From: an uncultured Lentimicrobiaceae bacterium
GTDB taxonomy: Bacteria; Bacteroidota; Bacteroidia; Bacteroidales; WCHB1-69
Direction: 5' to 3'
NCBI GenBank assembly: GCA_964610025.1
Contig: CAZSTX010000005.1
Location: forward strand, 1-55,689
Length of the DNA stretch: 55,689 nucleotides
Position 1 is the first letter of the stretch. Every line of letters starts with the position of its first letter. This document shows, one piece after another, positions 1,080 through 44,902 of this stretch. Made by a program: the position numbers and the translations under genes. Below the pieces are notes generated by a model. The model was given only the letters and a program-made list of their open reading frames with translations, was not told the origin of the DNA and ran no database searches.

Positions 1080-2369
1080 ATGTTGAATAAAACAAAGCAT
1101 ACAATTATAAACGGAGACAGCCGACATATGAGCGAACTTAACGATGAAAGTGTTCATTTAATTACGACTTCCCCACCTTATTGGCAACTCAAAGATTACG
1201 GAACAGAAAATCAAATCGGATTTCATGATGATTATGAAACATACATTAATCACTTGAATTTAACTTGGCAAGAGTGTTTTCGAGTTTTGCACAAAGGGTG
1301 CCGTTTATGTATCAATATTGGCGACCAATTTGCTCGTTCAACCTATTATGGTCGTTACAAAATCATTCCTATTCATACTGAAATTATCAAATTCTGTGAA
1401 GTGATTGGGTTCGATTTTATGGGACAAATCATTTGGCAAAAAGCAACCACAATGAACACTTCGGGTGGTGCAAGTATTATGGGAAGTTATCCAAATCCAA
1501 GAAATGGTATCGTAAAATTGGATTTTGAATATATTTTGTTGTTCAAAAAACAAGGAAATGCACCCAAACCGACCAAAGAACAGAAAGAAAACGCTTCAAT
1601 GACTAATGAAGAATGGAATACTTACTTTAATGGGCATTGGTATTTTTCTGGAGCAAAACAAGATAAGCATTTGGCCATGTTTCCTGAAGAATTACCACAT
1701 CGTTTAATCAAAATGTTTTCTTTTCCGGGAGAAACCATTTTAGACCCATTTATGGGAAGCGGAACAACTGCTTTGGCTGCAAGAAACTTAAACCGAAATT
1801 CTATTGGTTACGAAATTAATCCTGATTTCATTCCAATCATCAAAGAAAAAATTGGAACAGATGATGCTTTTACAAAAGTTCAAACTGAAATAATCCAACA
1901 GCCTGAATTAAAAACAGATTTTGAAAAACAAATAAAAGAATTACCTTATCAATTTATTGACACGCACAAATTAGACAAGAAAATTGATGTAAAAAAAATT
2001 CAATACGGTTCTAAAATTGATGCAAATAGCACAGGAAAACGAGAAGAATTTTTCTCTGTAAAAGAAATTATTAGTCCTGAACTTATTCGTTTGAGTAATG
2101 ATTTAATAATTCGATTAATTGGGATTAAACAAAATCCAGCTTTTAACGGAAAAGCAACCGAATATTTAATCAATAAAGTTCGTGGCAAAAAAGTATTCCT
2201 TAAATACGATGAAATTAAGCACGACAATGAGAATAATTTAATGGCTTACCTCTATCTTGAAAACAAAACTTTTATAAATGCACATTTATTAAAAGAAAAT
2301 TTAGCATTAGTAGATAATTCCATTGATTTTAAATATAAAACAAAATTTAACTCATTTATCAATGGCTAA
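1080..2369 (+). CDS. Type II R-M DNA methyltransferase (N4-C/N6-A, beta class) with C-terminal SNase-like domain
   Basis: Motif IV SPPY lies near the N-terminus and motif I DPFMGSGTT later (beta order). The last ~110 aa align by eye with thermonuclease (IRLIGI..., D...LMAYLYL...INAHLLKENLA). Confidence 0.93.
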   Translation: MLNKTKHTIINGDSRHMSELNDESVHLITTSPPYWQLKDYGTENQIGFHDDYETYINHLNLTWQECFRVLHKGCRLCINIGDQFARSTYYGRYKIIPIHTEIIKFCEVIGFDFMGQIIWQKATTMNTSGGASIMGSYPNPRNGIVKLDFEYILLFKKQGNAPKPTKEQKENASMTNEEWNTYFNGHWYFSGAKQDKHLAMFPEELPHRLIKMFSFPGETILDPFMGSGTTALAARNLNRNSIGYEINPDFIPIIKEKIGTDDAFTKVQTEIIQQPELKTDFEKQIKELPYQFIDTHKLDKKIDVKKIQYGSKIDANSTGKREEFFSVKEIISPELIRLSNDLIIRLIGIKQNPAFNGKATEYLINKVRGKKVFLKYDEIKHDNENNLMAYLYLENKTFINAHLLKENLALVDNSIDFKYKTKFNSFING

Positions 2370-3060
2370 AAAAGAAATCAAAAGATACTCGTTAGAATTT
2401 GGGAAAAAGGAAAAAGTTCTGAATTATGCTACACAAACTTACCAACTTTCAAGACCCAACAAAGTTGGGGCTGTAATGGCTTTAATCAGAGAATGTCAGC
2501 CAAATACTATTCAAGAATGGGAAGAATGGTATTTTGAAAATGCTACAACAGCAGGAAAAAACACTTTCAAAATAACGAAAGAAAGTTTAGAAGAACTTGG
2601 AGAAAGGCTTTACGAAAAAATTACGGAAGTTGTTATTCCCGAATGGCAAGAGGCTTTTAATGCTTTGACAAAAGAAGATTGCTACAATTATATTTACAAT
2701 CTTACTATCAATCGAACCTTTGACGGATATTTAAGAGAAAAATCAGTCGTAAATGATGGTTTGGTAAAGGCGTTTCCAAATGTTCGTTTTGAAGAAAGTC
2801 CACCTGAATTAGACCACGCAGGAGATATAGACTACCTTGGATACGTTACAGATAATAAGGCATTTGGAATACAAATAAAGCCTGTAACTGCACAGTCAAA
2901 CTTTGGCAACTATTCTGTTTCAGAAAGAATGAAAGCAAGTTTTGAAAGTTTCAAAAAAGATTTTGGAGGTAATGTATTTATCGTTTTCAGTTTAGACGGA
3001 GAGGTTGCAAACAGACAAGTAATTGACCAAATTCAAACTGAAATTGAACGACTGCAATGA
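2362..3060 (+). CDS. Type II restriction endonuclease, probably MjaI family (PD-(D/E)XK variant)
   Basis: Coupled to the MTase by an 8-bp overlap (ATG at 2362 preferred over the ORF-track start at 2323). Carries IDY...GIQIKP (D...QxK) and an N-terminal RPxxVGxVMxLIxE..TIxEWEEWY block that I recall as typical of RE_MjaI-like proteins. Confidence 0.75.
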   Translation: MAKKEIKRYSLEFGKKEKVLNYATQTYQLSRPNKVGAVMALIRECQPNTIQEWEEWYFENATTAGKNTFKITKESLEELGERLYEKITEVVIPEWQEAFNALTKEDCYNYIYNLTINRTFDGYLREKSVVNDGLVKAFPNVRFEESPPELDHAGDIDYLGYVTDNKAFGIQIKPVTAQSNFGNYSVSERMKASFESFKKDFGGNVFIVFSLDGEVANRQVIDQIQTEIERLQ

Positions 3061-3169: not shown

Positions 3170-3180
3170 GAAATTAGAGT

Positions 3181-3236
3181 ATTGATGTTCCCAATAAATT
3201 CTGGATAGTAAGATAAGTCCAAAAATTTTATCTTTG
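3181..3236 (+). repeat. 56-bp direct repeat, copy 2 (right of R-M module)
   Basis: Identical to 534-589 except A540/G3187. Confidence 0.95.
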
Positions 3237-5478: not shown

Positions 5479-6632
5479 AAATTATTTTTAATTTGAAAAG
5501 CAATTTGTCTTGCTTCGTTATTTATTTGTATATAATTTTCAATAGTTGGATGCGATATATTGTTTATTTTCGATAGCGTTTCTTCTATCACTATAGGAAT
5601 TTGTAAAAAATGAATCTCTTCTTCTAAAAAAGCTTCTACAGCTACTTCATTAGCAGCATTCATAGCACAAGGACAAGTTCCACCTACTTCAATCGCTTGA
5701 TAAGCTATATCTAAACATTTAAACAATTTTTTATCCGGTAAAGAAAAATTAAAACTCGGATAGTCAGTAAATGAAAAGCGTTTCAATTCGTTATCAAAAC
5801 GATGTGGAAACGAAAGTGCATAAATAATAGGTAAACGCATATCGGGTAATCCTAATTGAGCTTTAATAGAAGAATCAGAAAATTGCACCATTGAATGTAT
5901 AATGCTCTGGGGGTGAATTACCACTTCAATTTGTTTAGGCGAAATATTAAACAGCCATTTCGCTTCTATAACTTCTAAACCTTTATTCATCAGTGTAGAT
6001 GAATCAATTGTTACTTTATTTCCCATTTTCCAATTAGGATGCTGCAAAGCTTGTTGAGGGCTTATCTGTTGCAACATCTCTTTGTTCATTCCCAAAAATG
6101 GACCTCCTGAAGCTGTTAGAATAATCTTTTCAACTTTATTGTAATTCTCTCCTATCAAGCATTGAAAAATAGCCGAATGTTCTGAATCAACAGGAATAAT
6201 AGGAACTTGATTGTCAAGTGCTAATTTCGTAATAATTTCGCCAGCTACTACCAAGGTTTCTTTATTAGCCAAAGCTATCGGCTTTTTATGTAAAATAGCG
6301 TTATAAGTAGGCAGTAAACCCGCATAGCCAACCAAAGCCACTAAGACCATATCGATACTACTCATTTCAACAATTTGTTCGAGCGAACGACTACCTGCAA
6401 AAACTTTGATATCGTATGCCAACAAAGCAGTATTAAGCTGCTGATAATATGTTTCGTTTTCGATTACTACTGCGTTGGGACGAAAAGCAATAGCTTGTTC
6501 TATAAGCAAATCAACATTATTTTGTGCTGTAAGCACTTCTACTTCAAAAAATGAATCATGTGTTGCTATTTGCTCTAATGCTTGCCTGCCTATGCTACCC
6601 GTTGAACCTAAAATCGCTATTCGCTTTTTCAT
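5475..6632 (-). CDS. dxr: 1-deoxy-D-xylulose-5-phosphate reductoisomerase
   Basis: ILGSTGSIG, LANKETLV, PVDSEH, HPNWKMG. Start at MKKRIAIL (6632). Confidence 0.97.
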   Translation of the reverse strand: MKKRIAILGSTGSIGRQALEQIATHDSFFEVEVLTAQNNVDLLIEQAIAFRPNAVVIENETYYQQLNTALLAYDIKVFAGSRSLEQIVEMSSIDMVLVALVGYAGLLPTYNAILHKKPIALANKETLVVAGEIITKLALDNQVPIIPVDSEHSAIFQCLIGENYNKVEKIILTASGGPFLGMNKEMLQQISPQQALQHPNWKMGNKVTIDSSTLMNKGLEVIEAKWLFNISPKQIEVVIHPQSIIHSMVQFSDSSIKAQLGLPDMRLPIIYALSFPHRFDNELKRFSFTDYPSFNFSLPDKKLFKCLDIAYQAIEVGGTCPCAMNAANEVAVEAFLEEEIHFLQIPIVIEETLSKINNISHPTIENYIQINNEARQIAFQIKNNL

Positions 6633-6656
6633 ACAATACAATAAAATAAATCAATG

Positions 6657-6664
6657 CAAAAATA
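6657..6664 (-). promoter_or_regulatory. -7 promoter box of the dxr-rseP-lptB operon
   Basis: TATTTTTG on the minus strand, 25 bp upstream of the dxr ATG. Confidence 0.6.
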
Positions 6665-6845
6665 CGAAATTCTAAAACGTGAATAAACAAAGTTTAGTAT
6701 TTAATTGAAAGTATTTTTCAAATCTTCTATTCTATGAAAAGAAAAACGTAAATATTTAATACATTTTCCTAAAATAGTTCTCAAAAACTGTTTCTTATAA
6801 AAAAATGCTTACTTTTGTGATTAAGAAATAAATAAAAACCAATAA

Positions 6846-7001
6846 ATGAAAAATTTTAAAGAGAAAGCAGTCCTGATTTGGAGAATAGCAGACATGCTAA
6901 GAGAAGATTACAAACAGTCTGACTATGAAAAAGTAATACTTCCAATGACTATATTAAGGGGATTAGATTGTGTAATTCAGCCAAGCAAACATACCTTATG
7001 A
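6846..7001 (+). pseudogene. hsdM: N-terminal stub (51 aa) of a type I R-M modification subunit
   Basis: MKNFKEKAVLIWRIADMLREDYKQSDYEKVILPMTILRGLDCVIQPSK* matches the HsdM_N pattern (IWxIADxLRGDYKQSDYGKVILPxTxLRRLDC), with substitutions at conserved G and R residues. TACTTTTG box at 6810-6817. Not in the ORF track. Confidence 0.8.
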
Positions 7002-7277
7002 ACATTCTTTATCTTTTAAGACACATACTTTAAAGATAGGTCTTGTGCCTTAATTGTAATGCCAGCAAAGAGTATTAAAATAAAAAGTTTTTCATACTAT
7101 GTTGCGATTAGAGTGCTATATTGATATAATAGCACAAAACAACACCATTCTTTATTTAGATTATTGCAATTATATAGGAATTAAAAACAACACTAAACTC
7201 TTGTTAAATAAAAAGAGTAATAGAAATGTTTTTTTCAACAAACAATCACCTTATTAGCAACAAATTAGTTGTTTTTC

Positions 7278-9388: not shown

Positions 9389-11036
9389 TTTTTCGCAAAA
9401 CTCGTATATACTGCTCTTTATCTTCTATAATTTCTCTTGCTTTTTTAATCTCTGTATCCATCAATAGCGCTGCTTCTGCTCTGCCTTTTTGATAGTAATA
9501 ACGAGACACTATTTCTATATATAACAACTCTTTAATTTCTTTTTTAAATCGTTGTAAATCATTTGTTTTTTCTCTCATTATTGTTTCTTTCAATTTGTCT
9601 ATTTCTTTTGTAACATCAGGGGAAAATTTATCTTCTTCTACGCTTTTTTCTAAAATCGCCAATTGTTTTTCGCTATATGTTTCATAACTTACGTTTTGAG
9701 ATGCAAAATATTTCAAAAAATCGTCGTACATAGCATCTGTGAAAACAAAATTTTTAACCGCAGGAATATGATTATTTCTAAACTTAAATTCATTTGCATA
9801 GTTAAATATAATTCTATTTTCTAACATCGTTAATAAAACAGTACTGTAAATATCTGACGCTATCAAAATATCGGGTTCTACTCCACCATAATCATAAACA
9901 ACTCTTCCATTTTTTGTCTTAAATGCTACAGCATTAGAATCTGCTTTTAGTTTAGAATGGCCGCTATCGTCTCTATCAGAATAATCATATTTCTGAATAC
10001 ATCGTCCTGATGGAATATAATATTTCGATACTGTTACTTTTAATTTTGTATTATAGCTTAAAGGTAAAATATTCTGTACTAAACCCTTGCCAAACGTACG
10101 TCTTCCAATCACCAAACCTCTATCTAAATCTTGAATGGCACCAGCTACAATTTCTGAAGCAGAAGCGCTTGTTTCATCTACAAGAATAACCAATGGTATA
10201 TTGACATCGATTGGTTCGCTACGTGTATAATAAAACTGATTTCTATCTTGCAATTTTCCTTTAGTACTTACAACAAGTTCATTCTTAGGCACGAATAAAT
10301 TAACCAATTCAACAGCTTCGTTTAATAGCCCACCACCATTTCCTCTTAAATCAATGATTAAAGCTGTTATATTTTGAGATTTAAGTTGCAAAAATGCGTT
10401 TTTAACATCCATAGCCGCATTTTCCATAAATTGCGACAAGCGGATATAAGCTATATCGTTATTTATTTTAGCAAAATAAGAAACATTCGGAAGTTTAATT
10501 TCTTCTCTAATAATATTTTTAATAGTGCTTGTTTTTTTTCCATAAGGCATTATTTCTAATTTAACAGAAGTGCCAGGCTGCCCTTTTAAAATAGCACTGA
10601 CATCAGCAACTGTTTTCCCTTTTGCACTTTGACCATTAACGCTGATTATTTTATCACCAGCCTGTAAGCCAGCATTTAAAGCAGGAGACCCTTCATAAGG
10701 TTCAGCTATTGTTACATAATCGTCTGCTTGTTGAATAATAGCTCCTATTCCACCGTAATGCCCAGTAGTTAATAATTTGAACTCTTCCATTTGCGACTCG
10801 GGATAATAAATAGTATAAGGATCTAAATTGTTGAGCATTGCATTGATAGACACTTCTACTAAATCGTTAGGGTTAATATCGTCTACATAATTTTCATTCA
10901 ATTGCTTTAAAAGTGTGGCGTAAATATCTAAATTTTTAGCTATTTCGAAATCATTACGCACAAAACTTAATGTAATAGATATAATTAACGTAATGCTAAC
11001 TATTACTATAATGCTAATCTTTTTTTTATTTTTCAT
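9375..11036 (-). CDS. S41 family C-terminal processing peptidase
   Basis: LDPY, PDZ domain, DLRGNGGG, SASASEIV, GKGLVQ. Confidence 0.93.
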   Translation of the reverse strand: MKNKKKISIIVIVSITLIISITLSFVRNDFEIAKNLDIYATLLKQLNENYVDDINPNDLVEVSINAMLNNLDPYTIYYPESQMEEFKLLTTGHYGGIGAIIQQADDYVTIAEPYEGSPALNAGLQAGDKIISVNGQSAKGKTVADVSAILKGQPGTSVKLEIMPYGKKTSTIKNIIREEIKLPNVSYFAKINNDIAYIRLSQFMENAAMDVKNAFLQLKSQNITALIIDLRGNGGGLLNEAVELVNLFVPKNELVVSTKGKLQDRNQFYYTRSEPIDVNIPLVILVDETSASASEIVAGAIQDLDRGLVIGRRTFGKGLVQNILPLSYNTKLKVTVSKYYIPSGRCIQKYDYSDRDDSGHSKLKADSNAVAFKTKNGRVVYDYGGVEPDILIASDIYSTVLLTMLENRIIFNYANEFKFRNNHIPAVKNFVFTDAMYDDFLKYFASQNVSYETYSEKQLAILEKSVEEDKFSPDVTKEIDKLKETIMREKTNDLQRFKKEIKELLYIEIVSRYYYQKGRAEAALLMDTEIKKAREIIEDKEQYIRVLRKNDGK

Positions 11037-11099: not shown

Positions 11100-11717
11100 T
11101 TAAGAAAAAGCATCTATTATGTTTAAGAAAAAATGAATAATTAATTTATAATCAAATATCAAAGCAAAAAAGAATCCGTAAATTGCTCCATAAAAATGAG
11201 CATTATGTCCTATATTATCAACATTTCTCCTTGACATATAGGCAGAATATGCCAAAAACAATATGCCAAAAATAAATGCCGGTATGCCGATTGGAATAAA
11301 AAAAAGATATATTTTCTGCATAGGATAGACTAAAATAGCAGCAAAAACCACTGCCGAAGTAGCTCCTGAAGCTCCTACTGCATGGTAATTATAGTTGTCT
11401 TTATGTTGCTTTAAATCAAACATTGTAGCAATAATAATAGAAGAAATATACAGTAGTGCATACATAAAATAACCTTTGCTATTAAACAAATAAACATAAG
11501 TCTTTTCTAACATGTTTCCAAACATCCACAATACAAACATATTAACAAACAAATGCAACCAGTTAGCATGAATAAAGCCATACGATAAAATGCGATACCA
11601 TTGGTGCCGATGCGCTACTGCATAAGCATTAAAAGACAAAGCATAAAATAAATCTTTTCTATTAAAAGCAATAATAGAAATAAACACAGTAATTAAAATG
11701 ATAGTTACATTAATCAT
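11100..11717 (-). CDS. Rhomboid family intramembrane serine protease
   Basis: GFIHANWLHLFVNM, GASGA (catalytic Ser), AHFYGA (catalytic His). TACTTTTG box at 11742-11749 (-). Confidence 0.92.
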   Translation of the reverse strand: MINVTIILITVFISIIAFNRKDLFYALSFNAYAVAHRHQWYRILSYGFIHANWLHLFVNMFVLWMFGNMLEKTYVYLFNSKGYFMYALLYISSIIIATMFDLKQHKDNYNYHAVGASGATSAVVFAAILVYPMQKIYLFFIPIGIPAFIFGILFLAYSAYMSRRNVDNIGHNAHFYGAIYGFFFALIFDYKLIIHFFLNIIDAFS

Positions 11718-11770
11718 CTTTTTTATAAAAAAATAAGATTACAAAAGTATATAAATATCTAAAGTAATAT

Positions 11771-11828
11771 AAAAAAACGTTTCACTTCGAGCTAGTCCAT
11801 CTTATCCTACCAAGGAATCAAACGTTTT
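11771..11828 (-). ncRNA. Candidate ~58-nt small structured RNA (unit A)
   Basis: Own TACTTTTG box (11836-11843, minus), 9-bp closing stem AAAACGUUU/AAACGUUUU, GC-richer core with a UCCU-UGGU-AGGA hairpin, and a terminal U run. Confidence 0.55.
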
Positions 11829-12026
11829 AATGTTGCAAAAGTAATAAAACAAACAATATATATGCTCTCTAAAATAAGAAAACCAACATTGCAATTGTGT
11901 TTAACAACTGTTACGAACTTTTCGGCACATCAAACTGCAAAAACAGATACGTTAAAATAATAATGGATAAAATGAGAATAGAGACTATTGTTGAGGAACT
12001 TAAAAAAACATAATAAATTATGGCTT

Positions 12027-12069
12027 TAGAAAACACGAGCTTGAAAACTCTCACCCTTTCGGTTTTCTA
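12027..12069 (-). ncRNA. Candidate ~43-nt structured element (unit C)
   Basis: 8-bp closing stem UAGAAAAC/GUUUUCUA, CC-GAAA-GG tetraloop and GAGUU-UUCA-AGCUC hairpin. Near-consensus TGCATTTG box at 12077-12084. No U tract. Confidence 0.3.
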
Positions 12070-12093
12070 TAATGCACAAATGCAATTATATAT

Positions 12094-12153
12094 AAAAAAA
12101 GGAATAATCCATTTCCATACCCAACAGGGGTAGGCTGTTATTATTCCTTTTTT
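12094..12153 (-). ncRNA. Candidate ~60-nt small structured RNA (unit B)
   Basis: TATTTTTG box (12160-12167, minus), 14-bp perfect closing stem AAAAAAGGAAUAAU/AUUAUUCCUUUUUU, and a GC-rich core with a CCUACCC-CUGUU-GGGUAUGG hairpin. Confidence 0.5.
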
Positions 12154-12365
12154 ATAATGCAAAAATAAAATAAATTTTAATACAAACTTAAAAAGTAAAA
12201 CAAACAACAAAACAAAAAGTAATATCTTGAATATCAAAATACTAAGAATTTTCATATAAAATTAACTCAATTTTTAGTTAAAACAACATTATATTTTTAT
12301 ACTTTTGTAACCTATTTTTTATATAGATTATATAACATTTTTTAATAAAATTAATTAAAACATAA

Positions 12366-14825
12366 ATGATTAAAAGTATTTATAACAGCAAGAAAAACAG
12401 GACAAAAAACAATAGGAACACTGCAATAAAGCAAATATTATTCATTTTATTCGTAACTATTAGTTTTAATTTATTAGGACAGCAAGTGCATAATTTAAAT
12501 AACAATAGCAAGCAAATGGAAGCATATCTCAACTCATTAGATGCTATGCCACAACATGATTTATCAGAAGGAGTAATAAACATTCGCTCTTTTGAAATCA
12601 ATCCTAATTTGCAAAATGCAAGAAAAATATCTACGGGAGATACTATTGTATTGCAATTATTTAAAGATAAAAACTACCAAGCAATAGTTCATGCTAACTA
12701 TACTGATATAAATGGTAATTTTACTATCATTTTAAAATTATCAGACTATCCTATGGCTAGCGGCTTTATTACAACAAGTCGCAAAGAAAAATCACTTTTT
12801 TCAATATCCATACCCGAATTAAATCAAGAGTTTATAAGTAAAGGAAACGTTTTCTCTCCAATTGATTTTTTAATTGAAATAGAAAACACTATCGATACTA
12901 ACTTAAAAAACGATTATTTAGAAATACCAAAAGAAATTCCAGCAATAGAACTCAAAGAAGATGAAGGCTATATAATAGAAAAAGATTTACTCCCAGATAC
13001 CGAAGCAGACGGATACCCATGTGAAAAAGACCCTAATTTAAAAGGCAGCGATCCTGCTACAATAGACCTATTAATAGTTTATACACCAGCTGCTAAACTA
13101 TGGGCTGATACCAATACAAATGGTATAGAAAATGCCATTGCTGGTGCAATGGCAAAAACAGCAGAAGTGGTAAATAACCAAAAAAATGGAGATAGTATCG
13201 TATTAGTACATTCAGCATTAGTAAATTACGTAGAAGATGGCAGCGACCAAATGAGCACAGATTTAAACAGATTAATGAATACAGCAGACGGTTATATGGA
13301 TGAGATACATCAATGGAGAAAAGAATATAATGCCGACATTGTATCTCTTTTTGAGTTTTATCCGGCTACAGTTGGTGGACTGGGATATGTATTGACAGAT
13401 ACAAACAAAGGAAGACATGAATATGCTTTCAATGTATGCCGAATACAACAAGCTTATAACGACTACACTTTAATACACGAAATGGGGCATAATATGGGCA
13501 TGAGACACGACAGAGAGAACAATTCGGGCGAGCCACTTTATCCTTATGCACTCGGTTGGCGTTGGAAAGGTAATAGCGGCACAACATGGCGTTCGGTAAT
13601 GGCTTATGCTCCTGGCAATAGAACACCTTATTTTTCAAATCCAAATCAACTTCACGATGGTGTGCCTACAGGTAACGACACCTCCAACAACGCACGTGTT
13701 TTTAGAAACACCAAACATACAGTTGCTTTTTATAGCGATATATTAAATAATTTACCTCAAGCACCAAAAAATGTAATCGTTTCAAATTTAGGAAACAATG
13801 GAGCTACTTTTAGTTGGGATAGCAACGTAAATGCTGCCGGCTATAGAGTTTATACATATTTGGGAAGTGGTTATGTTTTCTGGAGTACAACCAACGCCTC
13901 ATACACAGTCTATTCCCCAACTTACTTTAACCCTTGCAATACGTATCAAGTAATAATTGCAACTGTCAACAATTGCGGAGATGTAACGCGAGGCGAAACT
14001 ATTACATTTTCGACCAAATGCCCCAACGACCCCACAGTTACTACTTTGCCTGCTACTGATATAAGTGTCAATTCGGCAGTACTTAACAAAACGACAAGCA
14101 ACAATGGAGATGCTATCTTATCCGAAGGGTTTTATTACAAAGAATTAAATGCCGACACTTGGCAAAATAGTGCCGATGGTAATCTATCTGGATTAATTGA
14201 AAGCGAAAAATACAAATATTACGCTTATGCAACAACAGCAAAAGCAACATACAATGGAAATGTATTAACATTTATTACCTCGTCATCTGGACCTTGCGAT
14301 AAACCTAACAACTTAAATGCTCCACAAGAATACATCACTGAACAGTCAGCACTCATTAATTGGAATGGCACTACTGCCGAATATATATTAGAATATAAAG
14401 AAACAAAAAATACTCAATGGACAATTTACACTCCTAATCCCACTACAACAAGTCTTACGCTCTCCTCTCTTTCAGATGATACAGAATACAATGTGCGTCT
14501 AAAAGCCATTTGTGGCAGCTACAACTTAAGCGAATACAGCGACACCATCACTTTTAAAACAATCAAAGACAGTTCGCCTATTGCTTCAAATTCAAAAAAA
14601 AACAACTCATTATACATTTATCCTAATCCCTTCAGTAATGAAATTTTTATTAAATCAGATATAACAATAAACAAAATTGAATTATATAGTATTTTTGGCA
14701 GCCTATTGTTTACTGAAAATAACTTCAATAAAAAAATAACTATTCCCGACCTCAGTGCTAGTATTTATATTCTAAAAATTCACACCGAAAATGGGATAAA
14801 AACTCATAAAATTATAAAAGAATAA
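12366..14825 (+). CDS. Secreted reprolysin-like (M12B) zinc metallopeptidase with FN3 domains and T9SS C-terminal sorting domain
   Basis: HEMGHNMGMRH (HExxHxxGxxH), Met-turn SVMAY, FN3-like repeats, and CTD IYPNPF...IYILKI...HKIIKE. TACTTTTG box at 12300-12307. Confidence 0.88.
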   Translation: MIKSIYNSKKNRTKNNRNTAIKQILFILFVTISFNLLGQQVHNLNNNSKQMEAYLNSLDAMPQHDLSEGVINIRSFEINPNLQNARKISTGDTIVLQLFKDKNYQAIVHANYTDINGNFTIILKLSDYPMASGFITTSRKEKSLFSISIPELNQEFISKGNVFSPIDFLIEIENTIDTNLKNDYLEIPKEIPAIELKEDEGYIIEKDLLPDTEADGYPCEKDPNLKGSDPATIDLLIVYTPAAKLWADTNTNGIENAIAGAMAKTAEVVNNQKNGDSIVLVHSALVNYVEDGSDQMSTDLNRLMNTADGYMDEIHQWRKEYNADIVSLFEFYPATVGGLGYVLTDTNKGRHEYAFNVCRIQQAYNDYTLIHEMGHNMGMRHDRENNSGEPLYPYALGWRWKGNSGTTWRSVMAYAPGNRTPYFSNPNQLHDGVPTGNDTSNNARVFRNTKHTVAFYSDILNNLPQAPKNVIVSNLGNNGATFSWDSNVNAAGYRVYTYLGSGYVFWSTTNASYTVYSPTYFNPCNTYQVIIATVNNCGDVTRGETITFSTKCPNDPTVTTLPATDISVNSAVLNKTTSNNGDAILSEGFYYKELNADTWQNSADGNLSGLIESEKYKYYAYATTAKATYNGNVLTFITSSSGPCDKPNNLNAPQEYITEQSALINWNGTTAEYILEYKETKNTQWTIYTPNPTTTSLTLSSLSDDTEYNVRLKAICGSYNLSEYSDTITFKTIKDSSPIASNSKKNNSLYIYPNPFSNEIFIKSDITINKIELYSIFGSLLFTENNFNKKITIPDLSASIYILKIHTENGIKTHKIIKE

Positions 14826-15026: not shown

Positions 15027-16235
15027 ATGAATATGGAAATATTAGCCAACAGAGTATTGCAAATGTCAGAATCAGAAACCTTAGCTATGACAAGAATAGC
15101 AAGAGAACTCAAAGCGCAAGGTAAAGATGTTATCAGTTTAAGCATAGGTGAACCAGATTTTAACACACCTGAAATTATTAAAGAATCGGGAAAAAAAGCT
15201 ATCGATGATAATTATACGCATTATCCCCCTGTACCAGGATATGCTGACTTAAGAGATGCTATCAGTAAAAAATTTAAAAGAGATAATAATTTAGATTATA
15301 AACCTGAACAAATAGTTGTCTCAACAGGAGCTAAACAATCTATTTTTCAAACCGTTATGACATTAGTCAACCCTGGTGACGAAGTCATTATTCCAGCACC
15401 CTACTGGGTATCGTATAAAGAAATTGTGAAAGTAGCTGAAGCAAAAACTATTTTTATAAAAACTACTTTAGAAAATAATTTTAAAGTAACAGCAAAACAA
15501 TTAGAAGAATACATTACTCCTAAAACAAAACTTATCATGTTTAGCAGCCCATCTAATCCCACTGGCATGCTTTATACAAAAGAAGAGTTAAAACAGATAG
15601 CCGATGTATTAGCTAAAAATCCTCACGTATTTGTCATGGCTGACGAAATCTATGAGCATATTAATTTTGAAGGAAAACATGAAAGTATTGCTCAATTTGA
15701 TTATATCAAAGACCAAATTATTACAGTAAACGGAGTTGCAAAAGGTTTTGCTATGACAGGATGGCGTATTGGATTTATAGGCGCTCCTTTACAAATAGCC
15801 AAAGCTTGCGATAAACTGCAAGGACAAGTAACATCAGCCACCTGTTCCATTGCTCAACGTGCTACAATAACAGCCATGGGATTAGACCCTTCTAATAGTA
15901 AAGATATTATTACAATGCGTAATAAATTTCTCGAACGCAGAGATTTAATGTACAAATTATTAAAAGAAATACCCGATATAAAAGTCATACTTCCACAGGG
16001 AGCTTTTTATTTCTTTCCAGAAGTAAATGCATACTATGGCAAATCTTATGATAAATATACTATCAACGACAGCAACGATTTAGCCATGTATTTATTGTAT
16101 GAAGCTAATGTTGCATTGGTTCCAGGAGCCGCTTTCGGCGATGACAATTGCATACGCTTTTCATATGCCACCTCCAACGAATTGCTTATTGAAGCAGTAC
16201 GTCGTATCAAAGAAGCTTTATTAAAATTAAAATAA
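15027..16235 (+). CDS. PLP-dependent class I/II aminotransferase (aspartate aminotransferase-like)
   Basis: GEPDF, SPSNPTG, DEIYE, GVAKGFAMTGWRIG. Confidence 0.93.
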   Translation: MNMEILANRVLQMSESETLAMTRIARELKAQGKDVISLSIGEPDFNTPEIIKESGKKAIDDNYTHYPPVPGYADLRDAISKKFKRDNNLDYKPEQIVVSTGAKQSIFQTVMTLVNPGDEVIIPAPYWVSYKEIVKVAEAKTIFIKTTLENNFKVTAKQLEEYITPKTKLIMFSSPSNPTGMLYTKEELKQIADVLAKNPHVFVMADEIYEHINFEGKHESIAQFDYIKDQIITVNGVAKGFAMTGWRIGFIGAPLQIAKACDKLQGQVTSATCSIAQRATITAMGLDPSNSKDIITMRNKFLERRDLMYKLLKEIPDIKVILPQGAFYFFPEVNAYYGKSYDKYTINDSNDLAMYLLYEANVALVPGAAFGDDNCIRFSYATSNELLIEAVRRIKEALLKLK

Positions 16236-44836: not shown

Positions 44837-44853
44837 AACACTATACATAAAAT

Positions 44854-44884
44854 AAAAAGGCTGCTTTTAAGTAGCCTTTTTTTA
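44854..44884 (+). terminator. Intrinsic terminator after gldN
   Basis: AAAAGGCTGC-TTTTAA-GTAGCCTTTT plus further T residues. Confidence 0.75.
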
Positions 44885-44902
44885 TAATGAAGTTTATAAA
44901 AA

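Follow-up and report, generated by a model that had tools for sequence, protein, structure and literature searches.

The spacer at positions 11718–12365 of the window, the 55,689-nucleotide stretch of DNA that was analysed as a whole, contains three terminator-type hairpins in a lineage-specific stretch at a synteny breakpoint, which are not a family of related RNAs. The hairpins, here named U1, U2, and U3, are of very different quality. U1 is robust and clearly above chance. U3 is marginal, with a strict promoter box and a 9-bp stem at the level of chance, and U2 is weak, with an imperfect box and without an adjacent U-run, and is probably not a unit. The sequence is consistent with U1, and perhaps U3, being an orphan minigene that runs from its own promoter to its own terminator, with an RNA of ~60 nt as the expected product, a reading that is tentative and given somewhat less than an even chance.

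The window has a GC content of ~30%, and its source is an uncultured Bacteroidales (Lentimicrobiaceae-like) bacterium of bioreactor and wastewater metagenomes. At 648 bp, the spacer is the longest in the window. The rhomboid and reprolysin/T9SS genes that flank it are divergent and both directed away from it, and no gene end lies inside, which bears out the statement of the first-pass annotation that no plus-strand gene ends here. The flanking genes and their promoters are the following:

11100–11717, minus strand: rhomboid protease gene, the first gene of the rhomboid–S41 peptidase–Wzy block.
11724–11758: left arm of the inverted repeat (35 nt, 86%; blastn E 3e-5) by which the divergent promoters are linked.
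11742–11749, minus strand: box of the proximal rhomboid promoter, TACTTTTG, located 24 nt upstream of the ATG.
12291–12325: right arm of the 35-nt inverted repeat (86%), the same repeat as 11724–11758.
12300–12307, plus strand: box of the reprolysin/T9SS promoter, TACTTTTG, located 58 nt upstream of the ATG.
12366–14825, plus strand: reprolysin-type metalloprotease gene with a T9SS sorting domain, 819 aa.

The 35-nt inverted repeat spans both of the outward promoters, which suggests that one promoter was copied from the other during rearrangement. The second long spacer of the window (6642–7277) contains a fragment of an HsdM_N gene. No tRNA or tmRNA was found, and no integrase, transposase, or recombinase genes are encoded in 1–21.7 kb, the only part of the window that was annotated.

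Three closing stems of 14, 8, and 9 bp are located on the minus strand within positions 11771–12167 and enclose GC-richer cores of 31, 27, and 37 nt. Together with a further box upstream of U1, the elements of the three units are the following:

12183–12190, minus strand: fourth strict box, TAAGTTTG, which is not followed by a hairpin.
12160–12167, minus strand: U1 box TATTTTTG, a strict TAnnTTTG, then CA (extended form TATTTTTGCA).
12095–12153, minus strand: U1 hairpin with a perfect 14-bp outer stem AAAAAAGGAAUAAU/AUUAUUCCUUUUUU (arms 12140–12153 and 12095–12108) and a 31-nt core.
12115–12134, minus strand: inner GC-rich hairpin of U1, 7 bp with one bulge and the loop CUGUU, in the MFE and centroid structures.
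12094–12100, minus strand: U7 run of U1, read directly from the sequence, with six of the seven U residues forming the end of the 3' arm.
12077–12084, minus strand: imperfect U2 box TGCATTTG, with G instead of the conserved A at the second position.
12027–12069, minus strand: U2 hairpin with an 8-bp stem TAGAAAAC/GTTTTCTA (arms 12062–12069 and 12027–12034) and a 27-nt core.
12002–12008, minus strand: U7 run nearest to U2, 18 nt downstream of the stem, with only a weak AU hairpin before it.
11836–11843, minus strand: U3 box TACTTTTG, strict, then CA (extended form TACTTTTGCA).
11774–11828, minus strand: U3 hairpin with a perfect 9-bp stem AAAACGTTT/AAACGTTTT (AAAACGUUU/AAACGUUUU; arms 11820–11828 and 11774–11782) and a 37-nt core.
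11771–11777, minus strand: U7 run of U3, abutting the region upstream of the rhomboid proximal promoter.

The three minus-strand combinations of a box and a stem with a GC-richer core of 27–37 nt, as described by the first-pass annotation, are seen in the sequence, with very uneven strength. The offsets of 8, 7, and 8 nt from box to stem given there agree with the re-measured spacers of 6 nt in U1, 7 nt in U2, and 7 nt in U3 for the middle value and disagree for the other two. U7 ends are present in two units, U1 and U3, and are lacking in U2, the stem of which has no adjoining U-run.

The predicted fold of U1 has an MFE of −22.3 kcal/mol, with z-scores of −3.3 on the minus strand and −4.2 on the plus strand relative to dinucleotide shuffles, and none of 200 such shuffles folds as well on either strand. 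The corresponding z-scores are −1.4 (minus) and −3.4 (plus) for U2, and −1.45 (minus) and −0.8 (plus) for U3. Because the stems of U1–U3 are pure Watson–Crick, the fold favours neither strand. Among the perfect inverted repeats of the window that have a 20–45-nt spacer, the U1 stem is the longest, and the only perfect inverted repeats of at least 14 nt are U1 and one true bidirectional terminator between convergent genes. Perfect inverted repeats of at least 9 nt with spacers of 3–45 nt number 45 in the window, as against 24 in shuffles. A strict composite was defined as a strict box followed after 3–10 nt by a perfect stem of ≥9 bp, a core of 20–45 nt, and T6; two composites of this kind, U1 and U3, are seen, compared to 0.0025 per shuffled window, a ratio that is based on post hoc criteria and on mononucleotide shuffles, which destroy homopolymer runs. 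With a looser composite, two are seen and 0.72 expected, and when G–U pairs are allowed, composites of a box, stem, and T-run of the grade of U3 also occur inside coding regions. The cores of the units are GC islands, in which the GC content over 30 nt reaches 0.47–0.53, values that no ordinary short spacer of the window attains; the 31-nt core of U1 has 52% GC and contains the 7-bp inner hairpin, the sequence of which has no second occurrence in the window or the related loci compared. A terminator scan of the minus strand did not call U1 and U3, which have AU-rich stems and cores of 31–37 nt.

The real gene promoters of the window have the box TAnnTTTG, usually followed by C/T and then by A, positioned 16–59 nt before the start codon. 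The boxes of U1 and U3 (TATTTTTGCA and TACTTTTGCA) match this extended TAnnTTTG(C/T)A form exactly, and the U2 box does not. Three orphan strict boxes are found on one strand of the 648 nt of the spacer, compared to ~0.65 expected from the window-wide rate, and two of the three sit 6–7 nt before perfect stems.

The first-pass annotation had proposed the units as a candidate array built on a common scaffold and as the best candidate in the window for an undescribed non-coding system. That the cores differ in sequence, as it stated, is confirmed by core-to-core alignments of U1, U2, and U3, which provide no signal (pairwise z from −0.7 to 1.2). The AUGGA that was said to be shared after a hairpin is at the level of chance, since approximately one common 5-mer is expected between two such cores. 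The likeness among the units is confined to their flanks, where U1 and U2 have the 18 nt TTTKTGCATTATARAAAA in common, and U1 and U3 the box and the TTTTTTTATAT tail. A covariance model was built from U1 alone and run on the window and on the related loci. In the window it assigns 117 bits to U1 itself; the next matches are the real terminator at 44843–44896 (E 0.13) and U3 (E 0.58), followed by the real terminator at 51134–51187 (E 0.92) and U2 (E 3). Its matches in the related loci are all ordinary terminators of the form AAAAAAAGG...CCTTTTTTT. Since the U1 model rates true terminators about as highly as U3 and above U2, the supposed common scaffold is the generic combination of a promoter box and an A-tract/U-tract terminator. 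The claim of a common scaffold therefore fails, the cores being unrelated and the model giving U3 and U2 scores no better than those of true terminators, and U1, U2, and U3 are neither a family nor a system. Rfam 15 has no matches in the whole window at gathering thresholds, and a permissive scan of the spacer returned only noise, with the best sub-threshold match, to a plastid 3'UTR hairpin, at 25 bits relative to a cut-off of 48; the Rfam search that the first-pass annotation had suggested thus yields no family for any unit.

The units share an A-run, a stem containing GG..CC, and a T-run with the ordinary A-tract/U-tract (bidirectional-type) terminators of this genome and its relatives. The terminators likened here, at 44854–44881 and 51139–51177 of the window and at 5612–5665 of the related locus L003, are the next matches of the U1 model after U1. 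The TTTTTTATAATG tail of U1 is also present in the real terminator at 44854–44890 (tail 44873–44890), and on the plus strand U1 resembles the ordinary terminators of the genome. By contrast, the real terminators have loops of 3–10 nt and are preceded by a gene, whereas U1–U3 have cores of 27–37 nt and are located in a spacer without a gene end. The possibility that U1–U3 are the intrinsic terminator of a gene was rejected, because no same-strand gene end precedes them and the flanking genes are directed away.

Relatives were found through the S41 peptidase in GTDB genomes and through homologues of the rhomboid protease. The five nearest species keep the order rhomboid–S41–Wzy, with S41 peptidases that are 85–70% identical and rhomboid proteases that are 83–67% identical. 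In these species, the spacer upstream of the rhomboid gene is 183–525 bp long and has no similarity to the units. The divergent neighbour of the rhomboid gene differs by lineage and is an FGE-sulfatase, a 649-aa T9SS protein, or a 549-aa protein. Because the upstream neighbour differs in each lineage, the spacer 11718–12365 represents a synteny breakpoint. Conservation in related genomes, on which the first-pass annotation had made its proposal depend, is absent at every related locus found. The reprolysin protein has only relatives at 30–56% identity in the JGI metagenomes, and 12 DNA runs with this genome contain the identical strain only, with no substitutions in the spacer. A search of the spacer for remnants of neighbour genes, against the neighbour proteins of the relatives and all the proteins of the window, provided nothing above noise.

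A second copy of U1 is present in run X2, in which a 17,129-nt contig matches positions 12095–12152, the whole U1 hairpin, at its own positions 16119–16176, with 56 of 58 nucleotides identical. The match covers the hairpin alone; the flanks in the X2 contig are unrelated to the window, and there is no alignment of the contig at ≥80% to the rhomboid, S41, or reprolysin genes. The depth of the X2 contig is 9.6, compared to 13.7 for the window's own contig, and run X1 has the window genome at the same depth and lacks the X2 contig. On the minus strand, the X2 copy has a strict box TACTTTTGCA 6 nt before the stem, again followed by CA (GTACTTTTGCAATTG), and U6 after the stem (UUUUUUAUUUUGG). The chance of a strict box at the U1 offset in the X2 flank is ~1%. 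Because the X2 copy retains the box, hairpin, and U-run, it provides the best evidence that these three elements are a maintained unit, and it is also compatible with a hairpin that is mobile or that forms part of a site shared with another replicon. The 55.7-kb window itself contains U1 only once, and the contigs of the 12 runs contain, at ≥80%, one copy per genome plus that on the foreign X2 contig. The spacer has no blastn match among plasmids and phages, and pattern scans of IMG/VR for the U1 arms and core halves returned only chance matches. It is conceivable, if improbable, that U1 is a minigene of ~75 bp, with an RNA of ~60 nt, which moves between unrelated replicons or genomes of the bioreactor community or occupies a shared integration site. 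Such a mobile or shared-site minigene would account for the near-identical hairpin amid wholly different surroundings.

If U1 is a minigene, its −7 box TATTTTTGCA would be recognised by the primary-sigma (sigma-ABfr type) RNA polymerase of Bacteroidota. Transcription would start at approximately 12153–12156, at the foot of the stem, and would terminate at the U7 after the 14-bp A-tract/U-tract stem that encloses the GC-rich inner hairpin, giving a transcript of ~60–65 nt. The predicted product is a tiny, almost fully paired RNA, in which nothing would be exposed apart from the loop CUGUU and, in the internal loop, the strands AACAG and GGAAAUGG, and it may act through protein binding or through pairing of its loops. 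U3 could be a much weaker version of the U1 layout, and would be either a second such RNA or a terminator before the rhomboid promoter. From the earlier proposal of independently transcribed tiny RNAs, U1 survives as a credible candidate by virtue of its promoter-consensus box, its hairpin with U7, and the X2 copy, and the array does not. None of the RNA runs covers the spacer; a single metatranscriptome has dispersed pieces of the flanking genes and none from the spacer core, and is too thin to count either way.

In B. thetaiotaomicron, eight of nine northern-validated small RNA (sRNA) candidates have a mapped start site and an intrinsic terminator, and 27 of 49 high-confidence intergenic sRNAs are strain-specific (PMC7366714). 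Spacer units of B. thetaiotaomicron that combine a start site with an intrinsic terminator are usually real sRNAs (PMC7366714; dRNA-seq map, Ryan et al. 2020). U1 resembles the intergenic sRNAs of that species (PMC7366714) in its position in a spacer, its sigma-ABfr −7 box TAnnTTTG, its terminator-like end, and its AT-richness, and its spacer is lineage-specific in the same way as the sRNAs of B. thetaiotaomicron are often strain-specific (PMC7366714). With respect to the definition of an sRNA in that study (PMC7366714), the spacer location does not overlap a coding gene, and the −7 box of the predicted start is strict in U1 and U3 and imperfect in U2. Unlike the sRNAs of B. thetaiotaomicron, the transcripts of which have been mapped, U1 is known from its sequence alone. 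The predicted U1 RNA also differs in being only ~60 nt long and almost wholly paired, without a long single-stranded seed, and has no Rfam match. Should U1 prove to be transcribed, the still thin catalogue of Bacteroidota sRNAs would gain a very small, fully hairpinned member from an uncultured wastewater lineage, and the X2 copy would prompt one to ask how a minigene of this kind is spread or what constrains it so strongly. Should it prove not to be transcribed, U1 is a caution that in Bacteroidota genomes with 25–30% GC a box beside an A-tract/U-tract hairpin arises easily, and that such a chance pair looks like a designed scaffold.

The main rival to the minigene reading is that the spacer holds debris at the synteny breakpoint. 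According to this explanation, which ranks somewhat below the minigene in likelihood, the spacer would be a scar of rearrangement. The hairpins would be orphan terminators of the bidirectional type that outlasted their genes, or inverted repeats that arose by chance in DNA rich in A/T runs, and the additional boxes would be promoter fragments produced by chance or by duplication, with no discrete product or none that matters. A scar would fit the rhomboid's upstream neighbour, which differs in every related species, none of which has the units, and the flanking promoters, of which each duplicates the other in inverted orientation (35 nt, 86%); the gene fragment of HsdM_N in the other long spacer, 6642–7277, points in the same direction. 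It is also consistent with U3 and U2 being no better than shuffles on the minus strand, with ordinary terminators scoring at least as high as U3 with the U1 model, and with orphan boxes occurring in other spacers at about the background rate. However, debris does not account for the U1 copy in the unrelated X2 contig, which is identical at 56/58 positions and carries a box of its own, no remnant of neighbour or window proteins is detectable in the spacer, and the three orphan strict boxes, where ~0.65 are expected, include two that sit 6–7 nt before perfect stems. Another explanation, which is improbable, is that of a cis-acting leader or insulator, in which the U3 box is a distal and possibly ancestral promoter of the rhomboid–S41–Wzy operon, and U3 and the upstream U1 would serve as terminators, either attenuating read-through into the proximal promoter or blocking it, any short RNAs being by-products. 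All the boxes are directed toward the operon, and the U7 of U3 comes to an end shortly before the proximal promoter region. The sequence that precedes the U3 box is more similar to the rhomboid promoter regions of the related loci L002 and L005 (z 5.6 and 2.7) than the proximal region is (z 1.3 and 0.5), which lends weak support to U3 as a leader or insulator terminator that may lie behind an older promoter. The similarity to the promoter regions of the relatives is, however, weak (blastn E 0.21), and it is the proximal box that has the orthologous distance to the ATG, 24 nt compared to 27–30 nt in the relatives. Furthermore, a search for an alternative antiterminator fold was negative. The central part of the spacer is unstructured (z −0.35 and 0.09), and the second U1 copy lies in a different context.

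The same copy can be taken to indicate an element that functions as DNA, although the likelihood of this is slight: U1 would be a short mobile palindrome (MITE- or REP-like) or the core of an att site, present on the chromosome and on a mobile replicon of one sample. The arms of U1 form a perfect 14-bp inverted repeat, the identity block is the hairpin alone with unrelated flanks, and the X2 contig has a depth of 9.6 versus 13.7 and is absent from X1 despite equal host depth. By contrast, the assemblies of the 12 runs have one copy per genome at ≥80%, U1 is unmatched in IMG/VR and in the plasmid and phage collections, no integrase or transposase is encoded in 1–21.7 kb, no contigs with attL/attR-type junctions were seen, and a box conserved outside the identity block is unexpected for an att core. 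U1 is similar to REP and MITE sequences in having a short perfect terminal inverted repeat in two unrelated contexts; however, those elements have tens of copies, whereas U1 has one per genome, matches no collection of mobile elements, and has no readable target duplication. A REP or MITE repeat was rejected because there is no second copy in the window and none in the run contigs, save for the X2 contig. With att cores that overlap small RNA or tRNA genes, U1 shares an identity block of ~58 nt that is bordered by unrelated sequence, on a contig that differs in depth and occurs in one sample only, but unlike such cores it is accompanied by no integrase, attL/attR junctions, tRNA, or tmRNA. Small proteins are a very improbable explanation of the spacer, whether as plus-strand ORFs of 37 and 32 aa with U1 as their terminator or as a 47-aa minus-strand ORF resembling a type I toxin. 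A gene caller placed genes at 12020–12133 and 11862–11960 (plus strand) on a Logan contig, and the hydrophobic ORF47 starts 22 nt after the U2 box. However, the codon usage of all six ORFs is like that of open non-coding frames, with ORF47 and ORF62 below all, or all but 0.2%, of coding pieces; the plus-strand ORFs have no plus-strand box upstream, the reading frames continue across the hairpins, and a search of 1.8 billion representative proteins yielded no homologue of ORF47. The small-protein reading was rejected on account of the non-coding codon usage and the absence of homologues of ORF47, and a type I toxin–antitoxin system was discarded for the same two reasons. Equally remote is an invertible promoter segment, in which a recombinase would use the 35-nt inverted repeat to flip the 532-bp interior and re-aim the promoters. 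The inverted repeat (86%) flanks the interior, and all the interior boxes are directed one way, but each gene retains a promoter of its own, located within a repeat arm, so that a flip would change little. No recombinase gene is present within 1–21.7 kb, and no strand-changing joints were seen in the contigs of the 12 runs, which hide minority forms; on these two grounds the inverton reading was regarded as very unlikely. Unlike in the invertons of Bacteroidales, the repeat arms here carry both outward promoters, and no recombinase or second orientation was seen; what the spacer shares with them is inverted repeats around a few hundred bp with promoter boxes, beside the gene of a surface or secreted protein.

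The hairpin of U1, a minus-strand unit in which a promoter-like box precedes a 14-bp stem around a 31-nt core, has a second copy in sequencing run X2, at positions 16119–16176 of a 17,129-nt contig. The copy is identical to window positions 12095–12152 at 56 of the 58 nucleotides. A TACTTTTGCA box of its own precedes it by 6 nt on the minus strand; the sequences flanking the copy are unrelated to those flanking U1 in the window. The depth of the 17,129-nt contig is 9.6, compared to 13.7 for the window's own contig, and the contig was not found in run X1.

The spacer that contains U1 separates the divergently oriented genes of a rhomboid protease and a reprolysin/T9SS protein, and includes the following additional features:

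11724–11758 and 12291–12325: 35-nt inverted repeat (86%), whose arms are the promoters of the rhomboid and reprolysin/T9SS genes
11908–11952: fourth GC island, between units U2 and U3, with a hairpin of only 4 bp
12183–12190, minus strand: fourth strict (TAnnTTTG-type) box, without a hairpin behind it

Both divergent genes start with ATGATTAA, and it seems that the promoter and 5′ end of one of them were copied from the other. In the rhomboid loci of related genomes (L002–L006 and L050–L053), the divergent upstream neighbor of the rhomboid gene is different in every related lineage; in the window and two related lineages this neighbor codes for a protein sorted by the T9SS. The position next to the rhomboid gene appears to be a hot spot for the exchange of genes encoding surface or secreted proteins.

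A restriction-modification cassette near the start of the window is bordered by a direct repeat:

529–589 and 3176–3236: 61-nt direct repeat (95%), on both sides of the cassette
1080–2369: N6/N4 methylase with an SNase domain, inside the repeats
2323–3060: MjaI-like endonuclease, inside the repeats

Both repeat copies end exactly with a TATCTTTG box, immediately beyond which the sequences diverge. The cassette has the appearance of an inserted restriction-modification island with a duplicated junction. Adjoining the left repeat on its left is a segment with few open reading frames (354–549), the GC content of which reaches 0.67 over 30 nt in a genome with 30% GC. This segment has no matches in Rfam and folds no better than shuffled sequences (z-scores of −0.9 and −1.9).

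In a 347-bp spacer, two opposite-facing TATTTTTG boxes at 54381–54426 make up the two arms of an inverted repeat of 9 bp, with no gene at the usual distance from either box. The second long spacer of the window, after the one with U1 (6642–7277; 10461–10872 on the matching contig L001), is 636 bp long with a GC content of 0.25. It contains small called open reading frames, one of which matches HsdM_N, suggesting that part of a former type I restriction-modification methylase gene is left there.
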